Assembly (NCBI GenBank): GCA_016875535.1
Contig: VGPF01000002.1
Span: forward strand, 73,856-137,855
Direction of reading: 5' to 3'
Length of the DNA: 64,000 nt
Origin: Chloroflexota bacterium
GTDB taxonomy: Bacteria; Chloroflexota; Dehalococcoidia; SHYB01
Below the pieces are notes generated by a model. It ran no database searches. It was not told the DNA's origin and worked only from the letters and a program-made list of their open reading frames with translations. The stretch's first letter is position 1. Every line of letters starts with the position of its first letter. A program made the position numbers and the translations under genes. Below are positions 3,729-43,245 of the stretch, piece after piece.

Positions 3729-5990
3729 TTAGCGGGGGCCTCTATCGCGGAAGGGAGGCCTGCCGCCGCCATCGCCGCGCGGCGGGCCGCGGGGGCCGCG
3801 ATCCCCGTAGGGGCGCGGGCCGCGGTCACCGTAGGGCCTGGGCCCGCGGTCTTCCCGCGGGCCGCGATCCTCGCGGGGGCCGCCGTCGCTCACGCGCGCG
3901 CCGGAGCTTTGGAGGCCTTCTGAAAGGGCGCGCTTCGATAGGTTGATGCGCCCCATCCGGTCAATCTCCGTCACCATCACCGTGATCTCGTCGCCCACCT
4001 TCACCACATCTTCCACGCGGTTGACCCGCTCGGTGGAAAGCTCGCTCACGTGGACCAAGCCCTCCTTGCCGGGCAGGATCTCCACGAATGCGCCGAAGGT
4101 CATGATGCGCGTCACCTTGCCGGTGTAGATCGTGCCGACCTCCACCTCGCGGGTGAGCCCTTGGATGATCTCGATGGCCTTGCGCGTCCCCTCTTCCGTC
4201 GGCGAGCCGATGAAGACGGTGCCGTCGTCCTCGATGTCCACGGATGCGCCCGTCTGCTCGATGATGGAGCGGATCATCTTGCCGCCTGGGCCGATGACCG
4301 CGCCGATCTTCTCCGGGTTGATGCTGATGCGCGTCATGCGCGGCGCGTACTTGCTCATCTCCGTGCGCGGCTGGGCGATGGCCTCATGCATCTTGCCCAG
4401 GATGAACATCCGGGCCTCATGGGCCTGGGCCAGAGCCTCCGTCATGATGCCCATGGTCAGGCCCTTGATCTTGATATCCATCTGCAGCGCCGTGACGCCC
4501 TTGGCCGTGCCGGCCACCTTGAAGTCCATATCGCCCAGGTGGTCTTCGATGCCCTGGATGTCCGTCAGCACCTTGTACTTCTCGCCCTCCTTGATGAGCC
4601 CCATGGCGATGCCCGCCACAGGCGCCTTGATGGGCACGCCGGCGTCCATCAAGGAAAGGGTGCTGCCGCAGACGCTCGCCATGGAGGTGCTGCCGTTGGA
4701 GCTGAGCACCTCGGAGACGAGGCGGATGGTGTAGGGAAACTCCTCTTCGTTCGGGATCACCGCCAGCAGGGCGCGCTCGGCCAGCGCCCCGTGGCCGATC
4801 TCGCGGCGGCCGGAGCCGCCGATGCGCTTCGCCTCACCAGTCGAAAAGGGCGGCATGTTGTAATGGTGGAGGTAGCGCTTCTCCTCCTCCACGCCGATGC
4901 TGTCCAGCTTCTGCTTCTCGCCGATGGAGCCGAGCGTGGTGATGGTCAGCACCTGCGTCTGGCCCCGGCTGAAGAGTCCGGAGCCGTGGGTGCGCGGCAG
5001 GAGCCCCACCTTGCAGGAGATGGGCCGTATCTCCTTGGTGTTCCGGCCGTCGGGCCGGAGGCCGCGCTCCAGGATGGAGCGGCGGACCGCCGTCTTTTCT
5101 TGCTCGTCTACGGCCTCGTCAATCAGCTCCGACGGGAACTGGTCGCCGATCTTGGCCTTGATATCGGCCTTCAGATCAGCCAGGCCCCGCATCTCCTCCT
5201 GCTTGGTCACCGGCTTGAACATGAAGGTGTCCAGCCGGTTGCCGAAGTGCCCCGCCACCATGCGCTGGAGCTCTTCGGGAGCGGTCTTTTCTTCCCCAAA
5301 GGCGAACTTGGCCCTGCCGATCGCCTTGGACATCTCTTCGATGAGCTCGATGATTTCCTTGTTCACGATCTGGGCCATCTTCAGAGCCTGGAGCAGGATC
5401 TCCTCGGAGACCTCCTTCGCCCCGGCCTCCACCATCACAATGGCGTCCTTGGTCCCGGCCACCACGATGTCCAGCAGGCTGTTCTCCAGCTGCTGGTAGG
5501 TGGGGTTCACCACAAGCTGGTGGTTCACATAGCCGATGCGCACGCCGCTCACGGGCCCGTGGAACGGGATGTCCGAGATGGAGAGCGCGGCCGAGGCGCC
5601 GATGATCGCCAGGATGTCCGGGTCGTTCTCCTGGTCGGCGGAGAGGGTGGTGATGATGATCTGGACATCGTTCCGCAGGCCCTTGGGGAAGAGTGGGCGG
5701 AGCGGGCGGTCCACCAAGCGCATCGTCAGGATGGCGTCTTGGGTGGGGCGGCCCTCCCGGCGGAAGAAGCTGCCGGGGATCTTCCCGGCGGCGTAGAGGC
5801 GCTCTTCATAGTCCACCGTCAGCGGGAGGAAGTCTATCCCGGGGCGCGGCTGGACGGAGGCGACTGCGGTGACCAGGAGGATGGTATCGCCGTAGCGGAC
5901 GGTCACTGCGCCGTTGGCCTGGCCTGCAAGAGAGCCTGATTCGATCTGGAGAATCTTACCTGCGATTTCACGTTCAAAAACACGAGACAT
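3729..5990 (-). CDS. pnp: polyribonucleotide nucleotidyltransferase (PNPase) with Arg/Gly/Pro-rich repetitive C-terminal tail
   Basis: Two RNase PH domains, KH and S1 domains recognisable (…FHGPVSGVRIGY…, …GEKQ…GVTALQMDIK…, S1 VGTIYTGKVTRI…); tail GPREDRGPREDRGPRPYGDRGPRPYGDRGPRGPPRGDGGGRPP. Confidence 0.95.
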   Translation of the reverse strand: MSRVFEREIAGKILQIESGSLAGQANGAVTVRYGDTILLVTAVASVQPRPGIDFLPLTVDYEERLYAAGKIPGSFFRREGRPTQDAILTMRLVDRPLRPLFPKGLRNDVQIIITTLSADQENDPDILAIIGASAALSISDIPFHGPVSGVRIGYVNHQLVVNPTYQQLENSLLDIVVAGTKDAIVMVEAGAKEVSEEILLQALKMAQIVNKEIIELIEEMSKAIGRAKFAFGEEKTAPEELQRMVAGHFGNRLDTFMFKPVTKQEEMRGLADLKADIKAKIGDQFPSELIDEAVDEQEKTAVRRSILERGLRPDGRNTKEIRPISCKVGLLPRTHGSGLFSRGQTQVLTITTLGSIGEKQKLDSIGVEEEKRYLHHYNMPPFSTGEAKRIGGSGRREIGHGALAERALLAVIPNEEEFPYTIRLVSEVLSSNGSTSMASVCGSTLSLMDAGVPIKAPVAGIAMGLIKEGEKYKVLTDIQGIEDHLGDMDFKVAGTAKGVTALQMDIKIKGLTMGIMTEALAQAHEARMFILGKMHEAIAQPRTEMSKYAPRMTRISINPEKIGAVIGPGGKMIRSIIEQTGASVDIEDDGTVFIGSPTEEGTRKAIEIIQGLTREVEVGTIYTGKVTRIMTFGAFVEILPGKEGLVHVSELSTERVNRVEDVVKVGDEITVMVTEIDRMGRINLSKRALSEGLQSSGARVSDGGPREDRGPREDRGPRPYGDRGPRPYGDRGPRGPPRGDGGGRPPFRDRGPR

Positions 5991-26577: not shown

Positions 26578-26939
26578 CTATCGCTCCCGACGACTGAGGC
26601 GACGGCGTACTCCTTGGAGTGAGAGAGGCTGATCGCCAGCTCCTTCACCCCGAGGAGCTTGGCACGCTCCTTGGCGCGGCCGTGAAGGTAGACGAGGGGC
26701 TTGCCCCGGCGGTTCGGCAGGACTTCGACCTCCCGCCAGCCGATGCCGCGGATGCCGGTGCCAAGGGCCTTCATCACGGCCTCTTTGGCGGCGAAACGGA
26801 CAGCGAGCTCGTGGATGCGGTCGCGGTACAACGTGATCTCCATCTCCGTGTAGACGCGCTTCAGAAAGGCTTCACCCCGGCGGGCGATGGCCTCTTCCAC
26901 CCGGGGGATCTCGACGATGTCCACGCCGACGGTCAGCAT
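26574..26939 (-). CDS. acpS: holo-[acyl-carrier-protein] synthase
   Basis: MLTVGVDIVEIPRV… and …FAAKEAVMKALGTG… AcpS signatures. Confidence 0.88.
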   Translation of the reverse strand: MLTVGVDIVEIPRVEEAIARRGEAFLKRVYTEMEITLYRDRIHELAVRFAAKEAVMKALGTGIRGIGWREVEVLPNRRGKPLVYLHGRAKERAKLLGVKELAISLSHSKEYAVASVVGSDR

Positions 26940-26951
26940 AGTTGCGCCGCC

Positions 26952-27836
26952 CTAGCGCAGGCCCGCCTGCTTCAATGCCTCGGGGATGAGATGCTCCCAC
27001 CCCATGGCCATCATGTGGACGCCACGGCAGATGGGACGCAGCTCCCTGATGATGCGCGCGGCGATGGCGATAGAGGCGGCCTCCTTATCGCTCGCTGAGT
27101 CTATCTCGGCGATCAAGGCCTCGGGCACGTGGATGCCCGGTATCTTCTCGTTCATGTACCGCGCCTGCTTGGCGGACTTCAAGAAGATGATGCCGGGGAT
27201 CATGGCGGCATCCAGGCCGGGCACATGCTTGATGAAGGCGGCATATTGGCCCGGCTCGTAGACGGCCTGGGTCTGGATGAACTGCGCCCCTGCCGCGACC
27301 TTTTTGCGGAGCTTGACCAGCTCCGGCTCCTGGGTCTTCGCGCCAGGGTTCGCGACGGCGCCGATGCAGAAGTTAGGCGTGCCTTGGAGCTTGTTGCCCG
27401 CTAGGTCCTTGCCCGAATTGAGCTGTTTCACAGTCGCCACAAGGGCGACCACGTCCAGATCGTTAACGGCCTTCGCCTCAGGGTGATCGCCGGTGCCGGG
27501 AGGGTCGCCGGTGAGGCAGAGAACATTGCTGATGCCGAGGATGGATGCGCCGAGAAGATCGCCCTGCATCACGACCCTGTTGCGGTCGCGGCAGGTCATC
27601 TGCATGATGGGCTCGATGCCGCGATCCTGAAGGGCCTTGGCCAGCGCCCAGGGAGAGGCACGCATAACGGAGGCCTGCTGATCGGTGACGTTAAAGGCGT
27701 CAACAATGCCTTTGAGCCGCTCGGCGGCGGCAAGCGGGGCTAGGATATCGGTGCCCTTTGGGGGCGCAAGTTCGGCGGTGACGAGGAACTTCCCGGAAGC
27801 GATGGTGTCAGATAATCGGCTCAACCTATCCTCCAC
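26952..27836 (-). CDS. metF: methylenetetrahydrofolate reductase
   Basis: MTHFR fold motifs …VTAELAPPKG…, …NVLCLTGDPP…, …FIQTQAVYEP…. Confidence 0.82.
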   Translation of the reverse strand: MEDRLSRLSDTIASGKFLVTAELAPPKGTDILAPLAAAERLKGIVDAFNVTDQQASVMRASPWALAKALQDRGIEPIMQMTCRDRNRVVMQGDLLGASILGISNVLCLTGDPPGTGDHPEAKAVNDLDVVALVATVKQLNSGKDLAGNKLQGTPNFCIGAVANPGAKTQEPELVKLRKKVAAGAQFIQTQAVYEPGQYAAFIKHVPGLDAAMIPGIIFLKSAKQARYMNEKIPGIHVPEALIAEIDSASDKEAASIAIAARIIRELRPICRGVHMMAMGWEHLIPEALKQAGLR

Positions 27837-27892
27837 TTCTGCATGCCATTATATGGGCACACCTGGAGTCAGTCCAACGAACTCCCGCTATA

Positions 27893-28558
27893 ATGATGGC
27901 GCTCATGGGACTAGCCGAACGCCTCCGTAGACACGCCGCCGGACTCTGGCGCGCGAACCTTCGCCATCCCTTCGTGCACGGCATCGGCGACGGCTCGCTG
28001 CCCCTGGAGCGCTTCACCTACTTCCTGAAGCAGGACTACGTCTTCCTCATCGGCTACGCCAGGGCGCTCTCCCTGGCTTCAGCCAAGGCGCCGGACCATG
28101 AGGGCATGACGAAGTTCGCAGAACTGGCGCACGCGACACTCTCCCAGGAGATGGCGCTACACCGCCGCTACTGCGCAGGCTTCGCCATCAGCGCGAAAGC
28201 CCTTGAGCGCACCAACCCGGCAAGGGTCACGAGCGCCTATTCAGGTTATCTGATCCGAATCGCCAAGGCCGGCTCCATCCAGGAGATCGCGGCGGCGCTC
28301 TTGCCCTGCCAGTGGGGCTACAGCGACGTGGGGCTGCACCTAGCGAAGACGGGCGACCTTTCACCGAATAATCGCTACCGCGAGTGGATCGCCAGCTATG
28401 CCTCTCCCGAGTTCAAGGCAACGGCCGATTGGCTCCGCGGCTACCTGAACCGGCACGGGAAGGTCGTCACAGCGGCGCAGATGAAACGACTGGATACCAT
28501 CTTTGCCACGAGCGCGCGCCACGAATATGCTTTCTGGGAGATGGCGTGGCGCTCATGA
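27893..28558 (+). CDS. tenA: thiaminase II / aminopyrimidine aminohydrolase (TenA family)
   Basis: …HPFVHGIGDGSLPLERFTYFLKQDYVFL… and …PCQWGYSDVG… TenA signatures. Confidence 0.85.
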   Translation: MMALMGLAERLRRHAAGLWRANLRHPFVHGIGDGSLPLERFTYFLKQDYVFLIGYARALSLASAKAPDHEGMTKFAELAHATLSQEMALHRRYCAGFAISAKALERTNPARVTSAYSGYLIRIAKAGSIQEIAAALLPCQWGYSDVGLHLAKTGDLSPNNRYREWIASYASPEFKATADWLRGYLNRHGKVVTAAQMKRLDTIFATSARHEYAFWEMAWRS

Positions 28559-28586
28559 AGAAACATTGACGGCAACGGGAGCAGAC

Positions 28587-29471
28587 ATGGCAAGCATCAT
28601 TGACGGCAAGGCGATTTCCGAGCAGATTCTCAAGGAATCGGGCGAAGAGGTGACAAAGCTCAGGCAGAATGGCCTCACGCCCGGCCTGGCCGCGGTGCTG
28701 GTGGGCGATAACCCCGCATCTCAAGTTTATGTGCGCAACAAGACAAAGTCCTGCGAGCAGATCGGTATGTTCGCCGAGACGATCCGGATGCCGAAGGAGT
28801 CGCCACAGGAGGCAGTGGTGCAGAAGGTGCGCGGGCTGAATCGAGACCCTCGCTTCCACGGCATCCTTGTCCAGCTACCGCTGCCTTCGCACATAGACGA
28901 AGGGACGGTGGTGAACACGGTCGCGCCGGAGAAGGATGCCGATGGCCTCACTGCCGCCAGCATGGGCAGGCTCGCCTTAGGCGAGCCGATCTTCGTGCCT
29001 GCCACCGCCGCAGGCATCCAGCAATTGCTCCTGCGCACCGGCCACGACCCTGAGGGCAAGCACGTGGTGATCTGCGGGCGGAGCAACATCGTCAGCAAGC
29101 CGCTGGCGCTGCTCCTGGTGCAAAAGGCGAAGGGGGCGAACGCCACCGTGACGATGTGCCACACGCGCACCAAGGACATCGCCTCCTTCACGCGCCAGGC
29201 CGATATCCTGGTGGTCAGCACCGGCGTGGCGCAGTGGGTGAAAGGCGACATGGTGAAGCCGGGAGCTGTGGTGATAGACGTCGGCATCAATCGCATCAAC
29301 GACCCGACAACGAAGAGCGGCACGCGCCTGGTGGGCGATGTGGACTTCGCCAGCGTCAGCACAAAGGCCGCCGCCATCACACCCGTCCCCGGCGGCGTGG
29401 GACCGATGACCGTCGCCATGCTGGTGGCAAGCACCGTAAAGGCAGCGGCGCACTCGCTCAAGGCTAGATAG
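28587..29471 (+). CDS. folD: bifunctional methylenetetrahydrofolate dehydrogenase / methenyltetrahydrofolate cyclohydrolase
   Basis: MASIIDGKAISEQI…, …AAVLVGDNPASQVYVRNK…, …VVICGRSNIVSKPLALLL… ; start at ATG 28587 (track ORF has N-extension). Confidence 0.92.
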   Translation: MASIIDGKAISEQILKESGEEVTKLRQNGLTPGLAAVLVGDNPASQVYVRNKTKSCEQIGMFAETIRMPKESPQEAVVQKVRGLNRDPRFHGILVQLPLPSHIDEGTVVNTVAPEKDADGLTAASMGRLALGEPIFVPATAAGIQQLLLRTGHDPEGKHVVICGRSNIVSKPLALLLVQKAKGANATVTMCHTRTKDIASFTRQADILVVSTGVAQWVKGDMVKPGAVVIDVGINRINDPTTKSGTRLVGDVDFASVSTKAAAITPVPGGVGPMTVAMLVASTVKAAAHSLKAR

Positions 29472-29475
29472 CGCC

Positions 29476-30504
29476 GTGCCGCAGGATCTCCGGACGGCCG
29501 ATTTCGACTACCATCTGCCGCCGGAGCTTATCGCCCAGACACCTATCGAGCCGCGCGACCATTCGCGCCTGCTGGTGCTGAACCGCCGGGACGGCTCCAT
29601 CGAGCACCGCCGCTTTTTCGACCTGCCGTCCTATCTCCGCAGCAACGATCTGCTCGTCTTCAACGATAGTCGGGTTATCCCGGCACGCCTCCTCGGGCGA
29701 AAGGCGGGCTCCCAGGGCAAGGTAGAGCTTCTCCTGCTCCACCGGATAGGACCGAAGCGCTGGCAGGCGCTAGCCAAGCCTGGAAGGCGGTTGGGCCCTG
29801 GCATCAAGGTGGAGATCGAAGGGGCAAAAAAGCAGTACGTCCTCGAAATCGAGTCGAAGAGTGGCGATGGCACGGTGATCGTGCGACTCGACGACGAAGG
29901 CGTGATCGAGGAGTGCGGGCATGCGCCGCTGCCGCCGTACATCCAGGAGCGCCTCAGCGACCCGGAGCGCTATCAGACGGTCTACGCCCGGGTGAAGGGG
30001 AGCGCAGCGGCGCCGACGGCGGGGCTGCACTTTACGCCGGAGCTTTTGCAAAGGATCCAGCAACAGGGCGTGAAGTTCGCCTTCGTGACACTGCATGTTG
30101 GACTGGATACCTTCCGCCCAGTGGACGAGGCGGACCCGCGCGAGCATGTTATCCACAAGGAGTACTGCGAGCTCCCGCTGGAGACGGCAAGGGCCATCGC
30201 CGAGAGGCGCAAGCGGGGCGGGCGGATCATCGCGGTGGGGACGACGACGACGCGGGTGCTGGAGACGGCGGCAAAGGCGGGAGGCGTTGCCCCCTGGAAC
30301 GGCTGGACTTCGACCTATATCCTGCCGGGCCACACCTTCAGAGCGGTGGACGCCCTCATCACGAACTTCCACCTGCCGAAGTCAACGCTGCTGATGCTGG
30401 TGAGCGCCTTCGCGGGGAAGGCCTTGATTGACAAGGCCTACCGGGAGGCGATAGAACAGCGGTACCGCTTCTATAGCTTTGGGGATGCGATGCTGATTGA
30501 GTGA
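29476..30504 (+). CDS. queA: S-adenosylmethionine:tRNA ribosyltransferase-isomerase
   Basis: …DFDYHLPPELIAQTPIEPRDHSRLLVL… and …GRIIAVGTTTTRVLE… QueA signatures; GTG start. Confidence 0.92.
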   Translation: MPQDLRTADFDYHLPPELIAQTPIEPRDHSRLLVLNRRDGSIEHRRFFDLPSYLRSNDLLVFNDSRVIPARLLGRKAGSQGKVELLLLHRIGPKRWQALAKPGRRLGPGIKVEIEGAKKQYVLEIESKSGDGTVIVRLDDEGVIEECGHAPLPPYIQERLSDPERYQTVYARVKGSAAAPTAGLHFTPELLQRIQQQGVKFAFVTLHVGLDTFRPVDEADPREHVIHKEYCELPLETARAIAERRKRGGRIIAVGTTTTRVLETAAKAGGVAPWNGWTSTYILPGHTFRAVDALITNFHLPKSTLLMLVSAFAGKALIDKAYREAIEQRYRFYSFGDAMLIE

Positions 30505-30509
30505 ATGAA

Positions 30510-32489
30510 ATGCCTACACCAGTTGCACGTTCATTCTATTCAAACTCGATAGCAAAATTCCTCACGGAGGAACCTAGCCAAATTCTAGGCAAGCTAGCTG
30601 CGGCTAGTTCCTCCGACGACACTGGCGACCAGAAGAATGCCTGGCTGGAACAAATTAGGCTTCTGCAAAGAACTCTCCCCCCATTTCAACGCGGCCACAT
30701 TCTCTTCGAGTACTCGATCCCAAGAATCGGGAAGCGTATAGACAACATCATAATTCTAGATGGCATCATATTCGTCATCGAATTTAAGGTTCGCAGTTCG
30801 GGAGAAGCAAAACACCAGCTTCCTGATATTGAACAAGTCACCGATTACGCCCTCGACCTCAAGTACTTTCATTCCGCAAGCAGAGATGCCCCGATCATTC
30901 CAATCCTCTTTGATACCCATGCTCAATCGGCAAAGACTGAAGTTCGCATTGCCGAGGACATGGTTTCTAAATGTCTGCCAGCAAATCAAAGCACATTCGA
31001 AGATGTTATGAAGTCGGTGCTAAAGAAGGTTCCAGCCTCACACCTAGACCCGGTTACCTGGGAACGAGCCCATTACAGCCCTACTCCGACAATTATCGAA
31101 GCGGCGTGTGAGCTCTACAGAACCCACGCCGTCTTAGAGATTTCTCGCTCCGACGCAGCAAACCTTACTGAGACAACGGATGCCCTGTCACTGATCATTA
31201 GAGAAGCGAAGTCCAGCTCGCAGAAGTCGATCTGCTTTGTTACAGGAGTCCCAGGATCAGGCAAGACGCTTGCTGGATTAAACCTGGCTATAGCGCAACA
31301 AAATCAGGCCACTGACGAACACGCCACCTTTCTTTCTGGCAATGGCCCCTTGGTTCAGGTTCTTCAAGAGGCGCTAGCCAGATCTACAACTAAAGAGTCA
31401 CAAATCAAAACGACGAAGAAAAGCGCCCTCCGGAAGGTTAATGAGTTCGTCCAACCAATCCACCGCTTTCGTGATGAGGGTCTAAGAGATTTAGAGACTC
31501 CACCTACGGAAAAAGTGATTATCTTTGATGAGGCTCAAAGAGCGTGGAGTCAAGAGCAAACTGCAGACTTCATGAGAAGAAAAAGAAAGCAAGCCGATTT
31601 CTCGCAATCTGAACCTCAGTTCCTTATTAGCTACGTGAATCGTCACAAGAATTGGGCTGTCGTCATCTGCCTGGTCGGCGGGGGCCAGGAAATTAACACC
31701 GGTGAAGCAGGACTCTCCGAATGGTTCAAAGCCTTGGCTACGACATTTCCGGATTGGCACGTGCATGTCTCTGATAGACTTACTGACTCGGAATATGCCG
31801 TAGACGAGATTTTTTTCAAGAGCATCAACCCTTCAAAGTTGCATATCAATAACCACTTACATTTGGCCACTTCTATCAGATCTTTTCGATCTGAACATGT
31901 CTCCAATTTTGTGAAGGCTTTGCTTGATTGCGACATCGCTACCTCAATCGAGATGAAAAAGGCACTGAAAGAGAAATACCCACTAGTGCTGACACGCAAC
32001 CTCGATAGAGCAAAAGAATGGGTAAAGACAAACGCACGAGGGTCAGAGCGCTATGGATTGGTTGCCTCGTCAGGGGCCAAACGGCTAAGACCCTTAGGAA
32101 TCACAGTTCAAGCAGAAATTAATCCAGCAAATTGGTTCCTAAATCCATCATACGATGTTAGGTCATCATATTACCTTGAAGAAGTTGCTACAGAATTTGA
32201 TGTCCAAGGGCTTGAACTCGACTGGACCATCGTTGGATGGGATGCCGATTTTCGGTTCACCGAAGGAGCATGGCGCACTCTCTCATTCAGTGGCTTTAGC
32301 TGGAAGCAAATCAAGAGTCCAGTCCAGCAAGGCTATCGAAAGAACTCTTATCGTGTGCTTCTAACACGTGCTCGTCAGGGCATGGTAATATTCATCCCCC
32401 TGGGGGACTCCAGAGATAACACCCGGCGACCTGAATTCTACGACGGTACTTACAACTACCTGCGGCAAATCGGTGTTGAGGAAATCTAG
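30510..32489 (+). CDS. DUF2075/Schlafen-like P-loop NTPase (SF1 helicase-like) with N-terminal PD-(D/E)xK nuclease-like motif; horizontally acquired, candidate defence protein
   Basis: GC ~47% vs ~63% flanks; Walker A VTGVPGSGKT, DEAQ box KVIIFDEAQRAW, motif-VI-like YRVLLTRARQGMVIF; N-terminal …RIDNIIILDGIIFVIEFKV… D…ExK. Confidence 0.8.
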   Translation: MPTPVARSFYSNSIAKFLTEEPSQILGKLAAASSSDDTGDQKNAWLEQIRLLQRTLPPFQRGHILFEYSIPRIGKRIDNIIILDGIIFVIEFKVRSSGEAKHQLPDIEQVTDYALDLKYFHSASRDAPIIPILFDTHAQSAKTEVRIAEDMVSKCLPANQSTFEDVMKSVLKKVPASHLDPVTWERAHYSPTPTIIEAACELYRTHAVLEISRSDAANLTETTDALSLIIREAKSSSQKSICFVTGVPGSGKTLAGLNLAIAQQNQATDEHATFLSGNGPLVQVLQEALARSTTKESQIKTTKKSALRKVNEFVQPIHRFRDEGLRDLETPPTEKVIIFDEAQRAWSQEQTADFMRRKRKQADFSQSEPQFLISYVNRHKNWAVVICLVGGGQEINTGEAGLSEWFKALATTFPDWHVHVSDRLTDSEYAVDEIFFKSINPSKLHINNHLHLATSIRSFRSEHVSNFVKALLDCDIATSIEMKKALKEKYPLVLTRNLDRAKEWVKTNARGSERYGLVASSGAKRLRPLGITVQAEINPANWFLNPSYDVRSSYYLEEVATEFDVQGLELDWTIVGWDADFRFTEGAWRTLSFSGFSWKQIKSPVQQGYRKNSYRVLLTRARQGMVIFIPLGDSRDNTRRPEFYDGTYNYLRQIGVEEI

Positions 32490-32537
32490 AGTCCCTTCCG
32501 TTTACCCCTCCGCACTTTTGTTTTACACTAGAGCCCT

Positions 32538-32798
32538 ATGCGTGACCTTGAACTCTTAGCGCAGGAGCATTTCAAGCTCTGCCATGCCGAATCGCCACGG
32601 CACCGGGCGGAGCTCATCATCTGGTATGCAGACGTCGGCGTGGCAGTCGAAGGACAGAACGTCCAGTACCACTGCCCCGTGTGCGGCAAGATCGTTCATT
32701 CAACGGTGGACGAATTCGTCCACCACGAGACGCGCTGGGGCCTCACGTGCCCCGAGTGCAGGGCGAAATCGGAGTCTCGCCCCGGAGGCACAGACTAG
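32538..32798 (+). CDS. small hypothetical protein with two CxxC pairs (zinc-ribbon-like)
   Basis: 86-aa ORF, CPVC…CPEC; immediately downstream of the low-GC island. Confidence 0.5.
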   Translation: MRDLELLAQEHFKLCHAESPRHRAELIIWYADVGVAVEGQNVQYHCPVCGKIVHSTVDEFVHHETRWGLTCPECRAKSESRPGGTD

Positions 32799-32800
32799 CC

Positions 32801-33034
32801 ATGGCCGTGAAAGCGTACATCCTCGTTTCGACGGAGCCGGAGCACACGGCGCAGCTTCACGCCAAGCTGAAGAAGCTGAAACGCGTCAAAGAAGTCCACG
32901 AGGTGATGGGCCCCTACGATATCGTGATCGAGGTGAAGGCGAAGGAGCTGGCCGAGGTCACAGACCTCCTCCGGAAGTCCATCCGCCCGATGACGGGCGT
33001 TCGCAACACCACCACCTGCGTGGCGATGAACTAG
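32801..33034 (+). CDS. stand-alone Lrp/AsnC C-terminal (RAM) domain protein
   Basis: MAVKAYILVSTEPEHT…VKEVHEVMGPYDIVIEVKAKELAEV… RAM-domain pattern; start 3 nt after upstream stop. Confidence 0.65.
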   Translation: MAVKAYILVSTEPEHTAQLHAKLKKLKRVKEVHEVMGPYDIVIEVKAKELAEVTDLLRKSIRPMTGVRNTTTCVAMN

Positions 33035-33122: not shown

Positions 33123-34358
33123 ATGACTACCCAGGATTTCGCAAAGCAGTTGGCAGACACGCACGCCAAGATCACGGACGAAGGCATCGCCAAGTTCCGA
33201 GAGCGCATCGGAGTCGTTGTGCCAAGGGAGAAGCCCTACAACGAGTACGCCGCCATTGACAGCATGCGCCACTTCGTCGAGTCCTACGGCGGTGACAACC
33301 CCCTCTACACCAATCCGGAATACGCCAAGGGCACGCGCTGGCGCAACATGATCGCCTCCCCCGAGTTTCTGACGACCACCGGCGTCAGCGAGGTCAAGGA
33401 GATACGGCCGGAGATCCGCAAGCGCGGCGAGCACGCCCTGGCGGGGGTCCACGAGTTCTTCTCAGGCGACGAGTGGGAGTGGTTCGCCCCTGTCTATGCC
33501 GGGGACTCCTTTATCCGCCGCTACTACCTCTATGACGTTGTGGAGAAGGAGCGGAGCCAGTTCTCCGGCGGCCGCTCCGTCATCACCAAGTACCGCTCCG
33601 ACTACATCAACCAGCGTGGAGAGCTTGTCGCCACGGACCGCTTTTATTTCATCAAAGTGGAGCGGGATGCCGCGGTGAAGACGGGGAAGAACAAGCACAT
33701 CGAGCGGACGCGCTACACGGTCGAGCAGATCAAAGAGATGGACGAGGCCTACAAGAACCAATTCCGTCGCGGGGCGGATGTGCTCTACTGGGAGGATGTG
33801 AAGGTGGGCGATAGCCTGCCGGCCCTAGTGAAGGGCCCCATGACGCTGACAGATATGATCGTCTGGTGCCGTGGCTGGGGCGGCGGCATGCAGCACACCA
33901 GGAACGCCTGGAAAGACCGCTCGCGCCATCCCAAGTTCTACTCCTTGAACGAGTGGGGCGTGCCGGACATCGTCGAGCGGGTGCACTGGGACGACGCCTG
34001 GGCGCAGAAGATCGGCAACCCGCGCGCCTATGATTTCGGCCGCATGCGCAGCGTCTACCTCTCCGAGCTGGTCACCAACTGGATGGGCGACGACGCCTGG
34101 CTATGGAAGCTTTCCAGCCAGTTCCGCGCCTTCAACTTCATGGGCGATGCCACTTGGTTCAAGGGCAAGATCACCGGGAAGAGCGTGACACCGGAAGGCA
34201 ACCACATCGTTGAACTGGAGCTGTGGGGAGAGAACGAGCGCCACGAGGTTACGGCCCCCGGGAACGCCACGGTCATCCTCTGCTCCCGCGAAAAGGGGCC
34301 GGTGCAGCTGCCTCGGCCTTCGGCGAAGACGGAAGGGACCGTGCCGCTGATATACTAG
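33123..34358 (+). CDS. hotdog-fold (MaoC-like) dehydratase/hydratase family protein, ~411 aa
   Basis: Coding-like long ORF; double hot-dog-like length and Trp/Gly-rich C-terminal half; family call tentative. Confidence 0.6.
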   Translation: MTTQDFAKQLADTHAKITDEGIAKFRERIGVVVPREKPYNEYAAIDSMRHFVESYGGDNPLYTNPEYAKGTRWRNMIASPEFLTTTGVSEVKEIRPEIRKRGEHALAGVHEFFSGDEWEWFAPVYAGDSFIRRYYLYDVVEKERSQFSGGRSVITKYRSDYINQRGELVATDRFYFIKVERDAAVKTGKNKHIERTRYTVEQIKEMDEAYKNQFRRGADVLYWEDVKVGDSLPALVKGPMTLTDMIVWCRGWGGGMQHTRNAWKDRSRHPKFYSLNEWGVPDIVERVHWDDAWAQKIGNPRAYDFGRMRSVYLSELVTNWMGDDAWLWKLSSQFRAFNFMGDATWFKGKITGKSVTPEGNHIVELELWGENERHEVTAPGNATVILCSREKGPVQLPRPSAKTEGTVPLIY

Positions 34359-34362
34359 GCGC

Positions 34363-35007
34363 ATGCCTCTGAAGCTCATCGTCTACTCGGACTACATCTG
34401 ACCCTGGTGCTACCTCGCCCTGGACCGGGTCGAGCGGCTGGAGAAGCAGTACGGCCTAGAGGTGGAGTGGCGCGCCTTTGAGCTGCATCCCGAGATCCCG
34501 CCGGAGGGGCGCGTCCTTACCCGCGACCCGGATCGCGTAAAGGCGGGGCGCGAGCGCCTTCTGAAAGCGGCGGCGGAAGACGGCGTGGAGATGCGCTTCC
34601 GCGAGCGAACCTCCAATTCCCGGCTGGCGCTGGAGGCCACAGAATATGCCCGCGACCAGGGCAAGGCCAACGGCTTCCACCACGCCCTCATGAAGGCCTA
34701 CTGGGTTGAGACGCGGGACATCGGCGACAGCGACGTTTTGACGGATGTGGCCGCGGCCTGCGGGCTGGACGCCGCGGAGCTGCGCCAGGCACTCACGGAC
34801 AGGCGCTACTCGGAAGAAGTCCAGCACCAGATAGACCTGGCGCGCCAGTTCAACATCTACGCCGTACCGTCCTTCATCTTCAGCCACAAGTTCCTGGTCC
34901 AAGGCTGCCAGCCGTACGACGTCTTCGAGCGCATCATGGAGGAGCATGTCCTGCCGGACGCCAGGGCGGCAAGGGGCGAGGCACAGAGCGAAGATAGCGC
35001 CTCGTAG
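34363..35007 (+). CDS. DsbA/FrnE-like thiol:disulfide oxidoreductase with in-frame TGA in the CxxC position (candidate selenoprotein, U-P-W-C)
   Basis: MPLKLIVYSDYI-TGA-PWCYLALDRVERLEKQ… continues in frame into the 34462..35007 ORF; TGA at 34399-34401 exactly where the family has the first active-site Cys; hairpin with bulged U begins ~13 nt after TGA. Confidence 0.6.
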
Positions 35008-35241: not shown

Positions 35242-36735
<1,494 letters not shown>

Positions 36736-41699: not shown

Positions 41700-41822
41700 G
41701 TGCCCTGGCAGTGGCATATTTTCCGCGGAGACTTCCGTCCCTAGTATCGTCTGCGCTGGTGCGTTTCACTTCCGTGTTCGGGATGGGAACGGGTGGGTCC
41801 ACACCGCTCTGACCACCAAAGC
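41700..41822 (-). rRNA. rrf: 5S ribosomal RNA (solo, not adjacent to 23S)
   Basis: Minus strand GCTTTGGTGGTCAGAGCGGTGTGGACCCACCCGTTCCCATCCCGAACACGGAAGTGAAACGCACCAGCGC…CTGCCAGGGCAC; matches 5S helix I-V pattern and the conserved CCGAAC…GAAGTGAAACG block. Confidence 0.9.
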
Positions 41823-43170: not shown

Positions 43171-43245
43171 GGGGCTGTAGCTCAGCGGTAGAGCATCCGG
43201 TTTGCATCCGGGGGGTCAGGGGTTCAAATCCCCTCAGCTCCACCA
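43171..43245 (+). tRNA. tRNA-Ala (anticodon TGC), CCA encoded
   Basis: Cloverleaf: acceptor GGGGCTG/CAGCTCC with G3:U70 Ala identity pair, D-arm GCTC-AGCGGTA-GAGC, anticodon loop TTTGCAT, T-arm AGGGG-TTCAAAT-CCCCT. Confidence 0.92.

Follow-up and report, generated by a model that had tools for sequence, protein, structure and literature searches.

A probable Nhi-like (PDC-S41) nuclease-helicase gene of foreign origin behind queA in a Chloroflexota bacterium

The window analysed here is a 64-kb stretch (64,000 nucleotides) of contig VGPF01000002.1 from a Chloroflexota bacterium (assembly GCA_016875535.1), in which a single AT-rich open reading frame (ORF) stands directly behind the host gene queA. 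This gene (30510..32489, + strand; 659 amino acids (aa), stop codon 32487-32489) likely encodes a single-polypeptide PDC-S41 nuclease-helicase, belonging to the family that includes the verified Bacillus cereus protein Nhi-like. Its delineation draws on the ORF itself, a PADLOC match to PDC-S41, identity to an NCBI record and GC content at third codon positions (GC3). It is a known kind of defence gene and reveals no new kind of system. An earlier note, made from the letters of the window alone, had proposed the gene as a candidate single-gene defence factor; the proposal is supported by Pfam family PF09848, by the full-length PDC-S41 match and by 30% identity to the verified Nhi-like protein.

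The PADLOC model PDC-S41 matches at 5.1e-276 (915 bits), with residues 10-662 of the form that begins at an upstream GTG codon aligned to model positions 3-653 of 657. The PADLOC models for Nhi and AbiO reach only the P-loop region of the protein, the Nhi match (1.4e-5) pairing residues 239-375 with model positions 196-301 of 470. Nhi-like is represented among verified anti-phage systems by SG141, a 611-aa protein of B. cereus FSL H8-0482 that is marked verified (Millman et al., bioRxiv 10.1101/2022.05.11.491447, supplementary file 11). Its name refers to a domain organization shared with Nhi of Staphylococcus epidermidis, to which it has no sequence identity (Millman et al., bioRxiv 10.1101/2022.05.11.491447), and it has been classed as PD-(D/E)xK plus helicase superfamily 1 (SF1; bioRxiv 10.1101/2025.07.10.664194). 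Over its first 399 aa, on which all comparisons with it are based (the supplementary table gives about 400 residues), SG141 matches PDC-S41 at 6.5e-76 and Nhi at only 6e-7. An alignment of the same part with the window protein (30% identity, E 3e-47) takes in the nuclease motif, the linker, the Walker A motif and the DEAQ box, with RRPD...IECK in SG141 opposite KRID...IEFK in the window protein and a PTP-x-I-EAA linker common to both. A B. cereus plasmid carries a 611-aa orthologue (L176) that is nearly identical to SG141 over the comparable part; it can be aligned end to end with the window protein (30% identity, E 2e-76) and matches PDC-S41 at 1.6e-116 (388 bits). On this sequence evidence, the window protein is a divergent member of the same family as the verified Nhi-like defence protein. 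As PDC-S41 fits the clade of ~655-aa proteins to which the window protein belongs better than the Bacillus protein (915 against 388 bits), the model seems to be centred on that clade. The main ~655-aa clade is now placed in one family with a verified defence protein, and thousands of 'DUF2075 domain-containing' annotations gain a testable function.

The domain architecture of the protein points the same way. All four motifs quoted in the earlier note, namely a PD-(D/E)xK core, the P-loop VTGVPGSGKT, a DEAQ box and a motif-VI-like segment, were found, and the proposed combination of a nuclease with a DUF2075/Schlafen-type helicase is upheld at the level of both sequence and predicted fold. The N-terminal PD-(D/E)xK nuclease core occupies approximately residues 1-136 (30510..30917) and the SF1 helicase domain of DUF2075/Schlafen-group-3 type approximately residues 236-659 (31215..32486), the latter matching PF09848 (SLFN-g3_helicase, formerly DUF2075) at 4.5e-82. 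Mean column identity is 67% in an alignment of 47 family members, and every family-invariant residue is present in the window protein. In the nuclease core, the invariant residues are E67 (30708-30710, 5' of the catalytic motif), P71, R72, R76, D78, E91-F-K93, Q109 and D112; D78 and E91-F-K93 form the catalytic motif (RIDNIIILDGIIFVIEFK; 30741..30788). In the motor, they comprise the Walker A sequence or motif I, GVPGxGKT (G246-VPGSGK252-T253; 31245..31268; G246, V247, P248, G251, K252 and T253 invariant), the Walker B sequence or motif II, D340-E-A-Q343 within FDEAQRAW (31527..31538; F339-W346 invariant, and kept in the verified Nhi-like protein), and the motif-VI-like arginine segment YRVLLTRARQG (Y614-G624; 32349..32381). 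Judged by these residues, the nuclease motifs (E67, D78, E91, K93) and the motor motifs (K252, D340/E341, motif VI) appear intact.

An AlphaFold2 model built from the family alignment has a predicted local distance difference test score (pLDDT) of 85.4 and a predicted template modelling score (pTM) of 0.82. Residues 39-135 are modelled as an alpha-beta-beta-beta-alpha-beta fold (helix 39-55, strands 63-70, 75-83 and 86-93, helix 104-120, strand 129-135), with D78 on the second strand and E91 and K93 on the third, and structure matches for the N-terminal domain are almost exclusively to PD-(D/E)xK nucleases. Foldseek comparison of the whole model with the PDB places SLFN11 first (1.3e-8), with RecD at 6e-8 and further matches to SLFN14, Dna2, Upf1, nsp13 and HsdR, and these matches indicate an SF1B-like motor in the model. 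Between the two domains lies a helical region (approximately residues 137-235; 30918..31214) with the invariant columns W184, Y189-x-PTPTI-x-EAA and R213, for which no family or fold was matched; model pLDDT falls within it, at residues 205-218. This region is a candidate sensor. Other searches returned little: no NCBIfam family matched the protein, a sequence search of the PDB found no match to the full protein and, with the N-terminal profile, nothing above noise, and PHROGs gave only a weak P-loop match to Zot. Profile searches had been suggested as a means of telling a DUF2075-nuclease from a RecD-like housekeeping helicase, and PF09848 and the full-length PDC-S41 match were obtained rather than the latter.

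In the proposed mechanism, an ATP-driven motor would load on or move along invading DNA and would deliver or license the predicted nuclease, which would then nick and degrade phage DNA, with sensing and destruction combined in one protein. If Nhi-like is taken as a guide, the discriminator could be modified (methylated) phage DNA, making the protein a Type-IV-restriction-like motor nuclease. This trigger is favoured because phages that escape Nhi-like do so by loss of a DNA methylase, as stated in one preprint (bioRxiv 10.1101/2022.08.27.505566), but it is put forward tentatively, at somewhat less than an even chance. The main alternative is the mode of S. epidermidis Nhi, in which phage replication intermediates marked by the phage single-stranded DNA-binding protein (SSB) would be targeted; in that system, how sensitive a phage is depends on variation in its SSB, and the phage DNA undergoes nicking and unwinding (bioRxiv 10.1101/776245). 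The two characterized proteins thus differ in specificity, that of Nhi being tied to the phage SSB while escape from Nhi-like maps to the phage DNA methylase.

Among known systems, Nhi-like (SG141) is the closest in kind, sharing with the window protein the PADLOC family, the N-terminal D...ExK nuclease, the PTP-x-I-EAA linker, Walker A, DEAQ and motif VI, as well as organization as a single-gene system. The two differ in length (611 aa against the longer ~655-aa clade of the window) and are only 30% identical; in addition, the window gene lies on a Chloroflexota chromosome with predicted read-through from queA, whereas Nhi-like lies on a Bacillus plasmid or in a defence island. Nhi itself (SERP2475 of S. 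epidermidis; Bari et al. 2022) is a nuclease-helicase (bioRxiv 10.1101/776245) of the same architecture, with an N-terminal PD-(D/E)xK nuclease followed by a DUF2075 SF1B-like helicase in a single protein that targets nucleic acid; the window protein matches the Nhi profile in its P-loop region, not over the whole protein. Group III Schlafens (SLFN5/11/13/14), which have antiviral roles, carry a C-terminal helicase of the same Pfam family, PF09848. Their N-terminus is a tRNA-cleaving Schlafen/AlbA_2 domain, whereas that of the window protein is a predicted PD-(D/E)xK DNase fold with no Pfam match to the Schlafen core or AlbA_2 RNase domain. Prokaryotic Schlafens, recently reported to defend against phage, are described in that report as defined by their RNase domain (PMC13056530), and identity of the window protein with them was rejected since that domain is not matched.

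Restriction systems with motors provide a further comparison. In the Type IV enzyme McrBC the motor is the AAA+ GTPase McrB, and in the Type I subunit HsdR it is a superfamily 2 (SF2) helicase with adjacent hsdM and hsdS; the window protein has an SF1B/DUF2075 motor, no McrB partner, and queA and a Zn-ribbon gene as neighbours. Type I HsdR was rejected as an identification, as the ResIII profile matched below its cut-off (4.8e-4) and no HsdM or HsdS lies beside the gene. In contrast to this set, the window protein has no partner subunits, and no modification-reading domain was recognized in it. Other nuclease-helicase defences (Hna, Hachiman HamAB, DdmD and Upx) differ in helicase superfamily and domain order: Hna and Hachiman HamAB have SF2 helicases, unlike the SF1 motor of the window protein (bioRxiv 10.1101/2025.07.10.664194), the helicase of Hna is N-terminal, the reverse of the order seen here, and Hachiman is a two-gene system rather than a single gene.

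The gene is foreign in origin, as supported by its composition. In a sliding profile, GC content falls from 0.63-0.66 to 0.42-0.51 over ~30400-32400 and is again ~0.62 by 32600; it is 0.478 for the gene (30510-32489), 0.641 for the left flank and 0.618 for the right. GC3 is 0.488 in the gene against 0.76-0.885 in eight neighbours (those encoding the MTHFR-like protein, TenA, FolD, QueA, the Zn-ribbon protein, the RAM protein, the FAS1-like dehydratase (FAS1DH) and the DsbA-like protein). The 2-kb tile that holds the gene has the lowest GC content of the window and also the maximum tetranucleotide deviation (0.526; median 0.224, 95th percentile 0.288), so the windowed check suggested by the earlier note found a composition that is not uniform, with the gene tile the most deviant. 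The GC trough described in that note is real from the queA stop onward, whereas the foreign segment ends at 32489 and not at ~32535.

This right border was located with relatives of the locus. Locus L088, whose FAS1-like dehydratase is 91% identical to that of the window at the aa level and about 80% at the nucleotide (nt) level, keeps the order Zn-ribbon-RAM-FAS1DH-DsbA and has no DUF2075 gene upstream, where the start of a different, divergent gene is found instead. At the nucleotide level it is homologous to the window from 32490 onward, immediately after the last base of the DUF2075 stop. Homology between L088 and a metagenomic sister lineage of the window (L177), whose Zn-ribbon genes are 99% identical in aa and 89% in nt, likewise begins just after the DUF2075 stop. 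As homology in both cases starts at this point, the foreign segment (30505-32489) is essentially a bare ORF, and the 48 bp that follow (32490..32537) are conserved host sequence 5' of the Zn-ribbon gene. The suggestion that the Zn-ribbon gene (32538-32798) and the RAM gene (32801-33034) belong with the defence gene was not borne out: their GC3 (0.76 and 0.885) is host-like, they are conserved in L088 and they never stand beside homologues elsewhere. They were accordingly rejected as partners and are host genes by GC3 and by their conservation in L088 and L177. Within the window, the direct and inverted repeats at the borders did not exceed chance 10-18-mers, and no tRNA was found near the gene, no integrase or transposase next to it, and no promoter- or terminator-like sites at the junctions.

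The single ORF of ~660 aa described in the earlier note is present and measures 659 or 662 aa depending on the start codon. The upstream GTG at 30501 (662 aa) would overlap the queA stop (30502-30504), as the note had it, but the start is probably the ATG at 30510, 5 nt past that stop, because this is the annotated start of MBM4404816.1 and it fits the family alignment. The ATG form is 100% identical to that record (659 aa, 'DUF2075 domain-containing protein [Chloroflexota bacterium]'), which comes from a 160-kb contig of a metagenome-assembled genome. The upstream gene queA (29476..30504, +) is an intact host gene that matches PF02547 at 1.8e-132 and to which relatives align up to residue 341/342; its identification, together with those of the 86-aa CxxC...CxxC ORF and the RAM-domain ORF (PF01037), agrees with the note. 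Given the lack of promoter- or terminator-like sites at the junctions and the 5-nt distance from the queA stop, the gene is probably co-transcribed by read-through from queA.

Acquisition of the gene is older than had been thought. The note called it recent, which is wrong: in L177 the gene occupies the equivalent position, with an unchanged 5-nt spacing between queA stop and ATG and the same GC3. This locus is colinear with window positions 26662-32751 at 77% nucleotide identity, with identities of 85% for MTHFR, 72% for TenA, 92% for FolD, 79% for QueA, 69% for DUF2075 and 76% for the Zn-ribbon protein. At 4-fold degenerate sites, identity between the two copies of the DUF2075 gene (0.51) equals that of FolD and QueA (0.49-0.50), and the gene is therefore read as having been acquired before the split of the two lineages and as having co-diverged with its neighbours by vertical inheritance since. 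GC3 of the two gene copies is 0.49-0.50, compared with 0.76-0.83 for FolD and QueA, so the low GC3 persists despite near-saturated synonymous divergence. This persistent contrast may reflect either slow amelioration or maintenance.

Beyond these two lineages, the gene is not a regular companion of queA. Comparison with relatives shows that it is not universally conserved at this site: among 80 Chloroflexota species representatives (QueA 52-67% identical) none has it within 7 kb of queA, the rest of those genomes not having been searched. The closest of the 80 (L001; QueA 67%) has the order TenA-FolD-QueA-DsbA and lacks the Zn-ribbon block. In L001 (7001-8652), queA is followed by a DsbA-like gene whose window counterpart is at 34462, meaning that the whole Zn-ribbon-RAM-FAS1DH block varies and not the defence gene alone. 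A literal empty site, with queA directly followed by the Zn-ribbon gene, was looked for and not found in L001 or L088. In a third lineage (L178-L180), a 59% identical homologue (P0002) has the QueA C-terminus directly upstream, separated by a 138-nt AT-rich spacer, and a MazE-PIN pair downstream. P0002 groups with P0004, P0005 and P0007 (67-70%), of which at least two are not beside queA, and a neighbour-joining tree pairs only the copies of the window and L177 as sisters. Two independent insertions downstream of queA would be the simplest reading of this tree, though an old insertion followed by allele replacement may also account for it, and the 3' flank of queA may be an insertion hotspot. 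A functional tie to queuosine or 7-deazaguanine metabolism was considered and dropped, since adjacency to queA occurs in only three related lineages and in none of six other contexts. It is conceivable, if doubtful, that AT-richness is a maintained property of the gene rather than a fading trace of transfer, and that the spot downstream of queA is a preferred landing site. If so, low-GC coding sequence could be under selection, which might, for instance, hold down expression of a dangerous nuclease or permit silencing; alternatively, single-gene defences could insert by a cassette-like route that has gone unrecognized.

Homologues are numerous and patchily distributed. A word-indexed protein search gave at least 8000 matching proteins, and the best full-length relatives among the matches listed are 53-59% identical and come from Planctomycetota, Deltaproteobacteria, Cyanobacteria, Lentisphaerae, Nitrosopelagicus and Aenigmarchaeota. 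An exhaustive search of 50%-identity cluster representatives found 4735, 2879 and 954 clusters at E <=1e-3, 1e-10 and 1e-30, respectively; the ~655-aa clade is hence a large one, with about 950 such clusters at E <=1e-30 in Bacteria and Archaea. Several homologues lie among defence genes: one sits between Kiwa (KwaA/KwaB) and a type II-A Cas9-Cas1-Cas2-Csn2 locus; another is followed by HNH_2, an OLD-family ATPase-TOPRIM protein, PDDEXK_1 and an N6_Mtase/Eco57I gene (type IIG-like methyltransferase); and the Bacillus plasmid homologue L176 is near an HNH endonuclease and the Shedu gene SduA. Another follows LexA, and two stand alone among housekeeping genes. Neighbours differ in all nine homologue contexts examined, with no recurring partner gene, and in four of five other hosts the gene again has a higher AT content than its flanks. 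From the defence and plasmid contexts, patchy spread, AT-richness and absence of a recurring partner, the pattern appears to be that of a mobile single-gene defence module. In two loci, an 86-aa convergent ORF without a Pfam match overlaps the 3' end of the homologue by ~30 nt (L168 9942-10202 (-) and L172 9945-10205 (-)). The two ORFs are 68% identical to each other and absent from the window and the other contexts; with an occurrence limited to L168 and L172, the ORF was rejected as a partner.

The same distribution raises the question of who benefits. The gene could instead serve competition between mobile genetic elements (MGEs), as an abortive-infection-type toxin or a plasmid or phage exclusion factor of which an MGE was the primary beneficiary and which is now stranded on a chromosome. 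Such an origin would fit the homologues found in 51 plasmid records and one phage-like contig, the MazE-PIN toxin-antitoxin pair that adjoins P0002, the position of another homologue directly after an HTH_3 regulator (which abuts the start only in L172/L173) and the persistent AT-richness of the gene. No integrase, transposase, att-like repeat or MGE gene flanks the gene in the window, however, and the 4-fold-site identities speak for vertical inheritance with its neighbours since the L177 split. This explanation is considered unlikely, and it largely overlaps with a defence role rather than excluding one.

Natural inactivated alleles bear on whether the gene still functions. Contigs 99.9-100% identical to the window are present in several metagenomes, and three of them (L083, L085 and L086) break exactly at 32269, with the end of an insertion sequence (IS) upstream of the break forming the right junction; the C-terminus of its transposase matches rve_3 at 1.8e-9. 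The left junction is found in the 598-aa proteins P0122 and P0123 (same 90% cluster), which are native up to ...FTEGA587 and then continue as ERWLRKTGQWG. The rve-type IS, itself absent from the window, lies in codon ~587 (32269..32270), with both junctions coming from independent contigs and samples, and its left-end codons share GGTGGCTCCG with the reverse complement of its right end, as expected of terminal inverted repeats. Sample SRR7990526 has a contig that stops at 32269 and a second one that begins at 32240 (L175/L084); such a branch in the assembly graph would be expected from coexisting intact and IS-disrupted alleles. The L177 copy (3860-5839) has five in-frame stops in residues 486-517 due to a local frameshift and was split by the gene caller into pieces of 488 and 112 aa; it is probably a pseudogene. 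Given the IS-disrupted alleles and the frameshifted sister copy, the gene appears to be dispensable, repeatedly inactivated and in the course of being lost in part of the population. Repeated inactivation is often seen for costly accessory genes. The locus thereby offers what looks like a natural time series of one defence gene, with gain before the split, vertical inheritance and present loss, and lends itself to work on what defence genes cost and how they turn over in uncultured Chloroflexota.

These alleles also lend some weight to the view that the gene is an inert relic in the present lineage, intact by chance and no longer expressed or selected. IS disruption in at least five contigs from several samples, the frameshift in L177, the lack of a promoter of its own and an amino-acid identity to the L177 copy of 69-75%, under those of FolD (92%) and QueA (79%), all tend in this direction. 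Against this, the 659-codon ORF is intact and has kept all invariant residues despite near-saturated synonymous divergence, which would be unexpected without purifying selection; intact alleles recur in independent assemblies (L081/L087, L175 with L084, and L082); and the 5-nt spacing behind queA permits coupled expression. That the gene is a relic is accordingly judged quite unlikely.

Several points weigh against the favoured reading of the gene as a functioning Nhi-like defence gene. Resistance to phage is a predicted activity of the window protein, known experimentally only for the 30%-identical Bacillus protein; as this is the only verified relative, trigger and specificity may differ from those predicted. 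PDC-S41 is itself only a 'candidate' label, and a literature search for that name found no paper. The proposed dependence on methylation goes back to a single sentence on mutants that escape the Bacillus protein, and the window protein contains no identified modification-reading domain. Three homologue contexts, and the window itself, are without other defence genes, and the recurrent inactivation could be a sign that this lineage no longer profits from the gene. A housekeeping nuclease-helicase for DNA repair or recombination (RecD-, Dna2- or AddAB-like) that stands behind queA by chance is highly improbable, for although Foldseek puts the motor beside RecD, Dna2 and Upf1 and the site is kept in two lineages with an identical tight queA junction, the gene is not beside queA in any of the 80 species representatives, has a GC3 of 0.49 against ~0.8 in host genes, matches no NCBIfam housekeeping family, is spread patchily across domains at 53-59% identity with plasmid and defence-island contexts, is dispensable as its disrupted and frameshifted alleles show, and has no RecB- or RecC-type partners adjacent.

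Two observations concern the region downstream of the gene. The 16S rRNA gene (35242-36735, -) and the 5S rRNA gene (41703-41820, -) are ~5 kb apart with protein-coding ORFs between them, and a search at Rfam gathering thresholds found no 23S rRNA gene anywhere in the window. The rRNA genes seem not to be linked, and near them, on the opposite strand, is a lone tRNA-Ala(TGC) gene (43171-43245, +). In a more distantly related locus (L089 2709-5164), the FAS1-like dehydratase gene of the window (33123-34358) corresponds to two paralogues in tandem, with 66% and 49% identity to the window protein.

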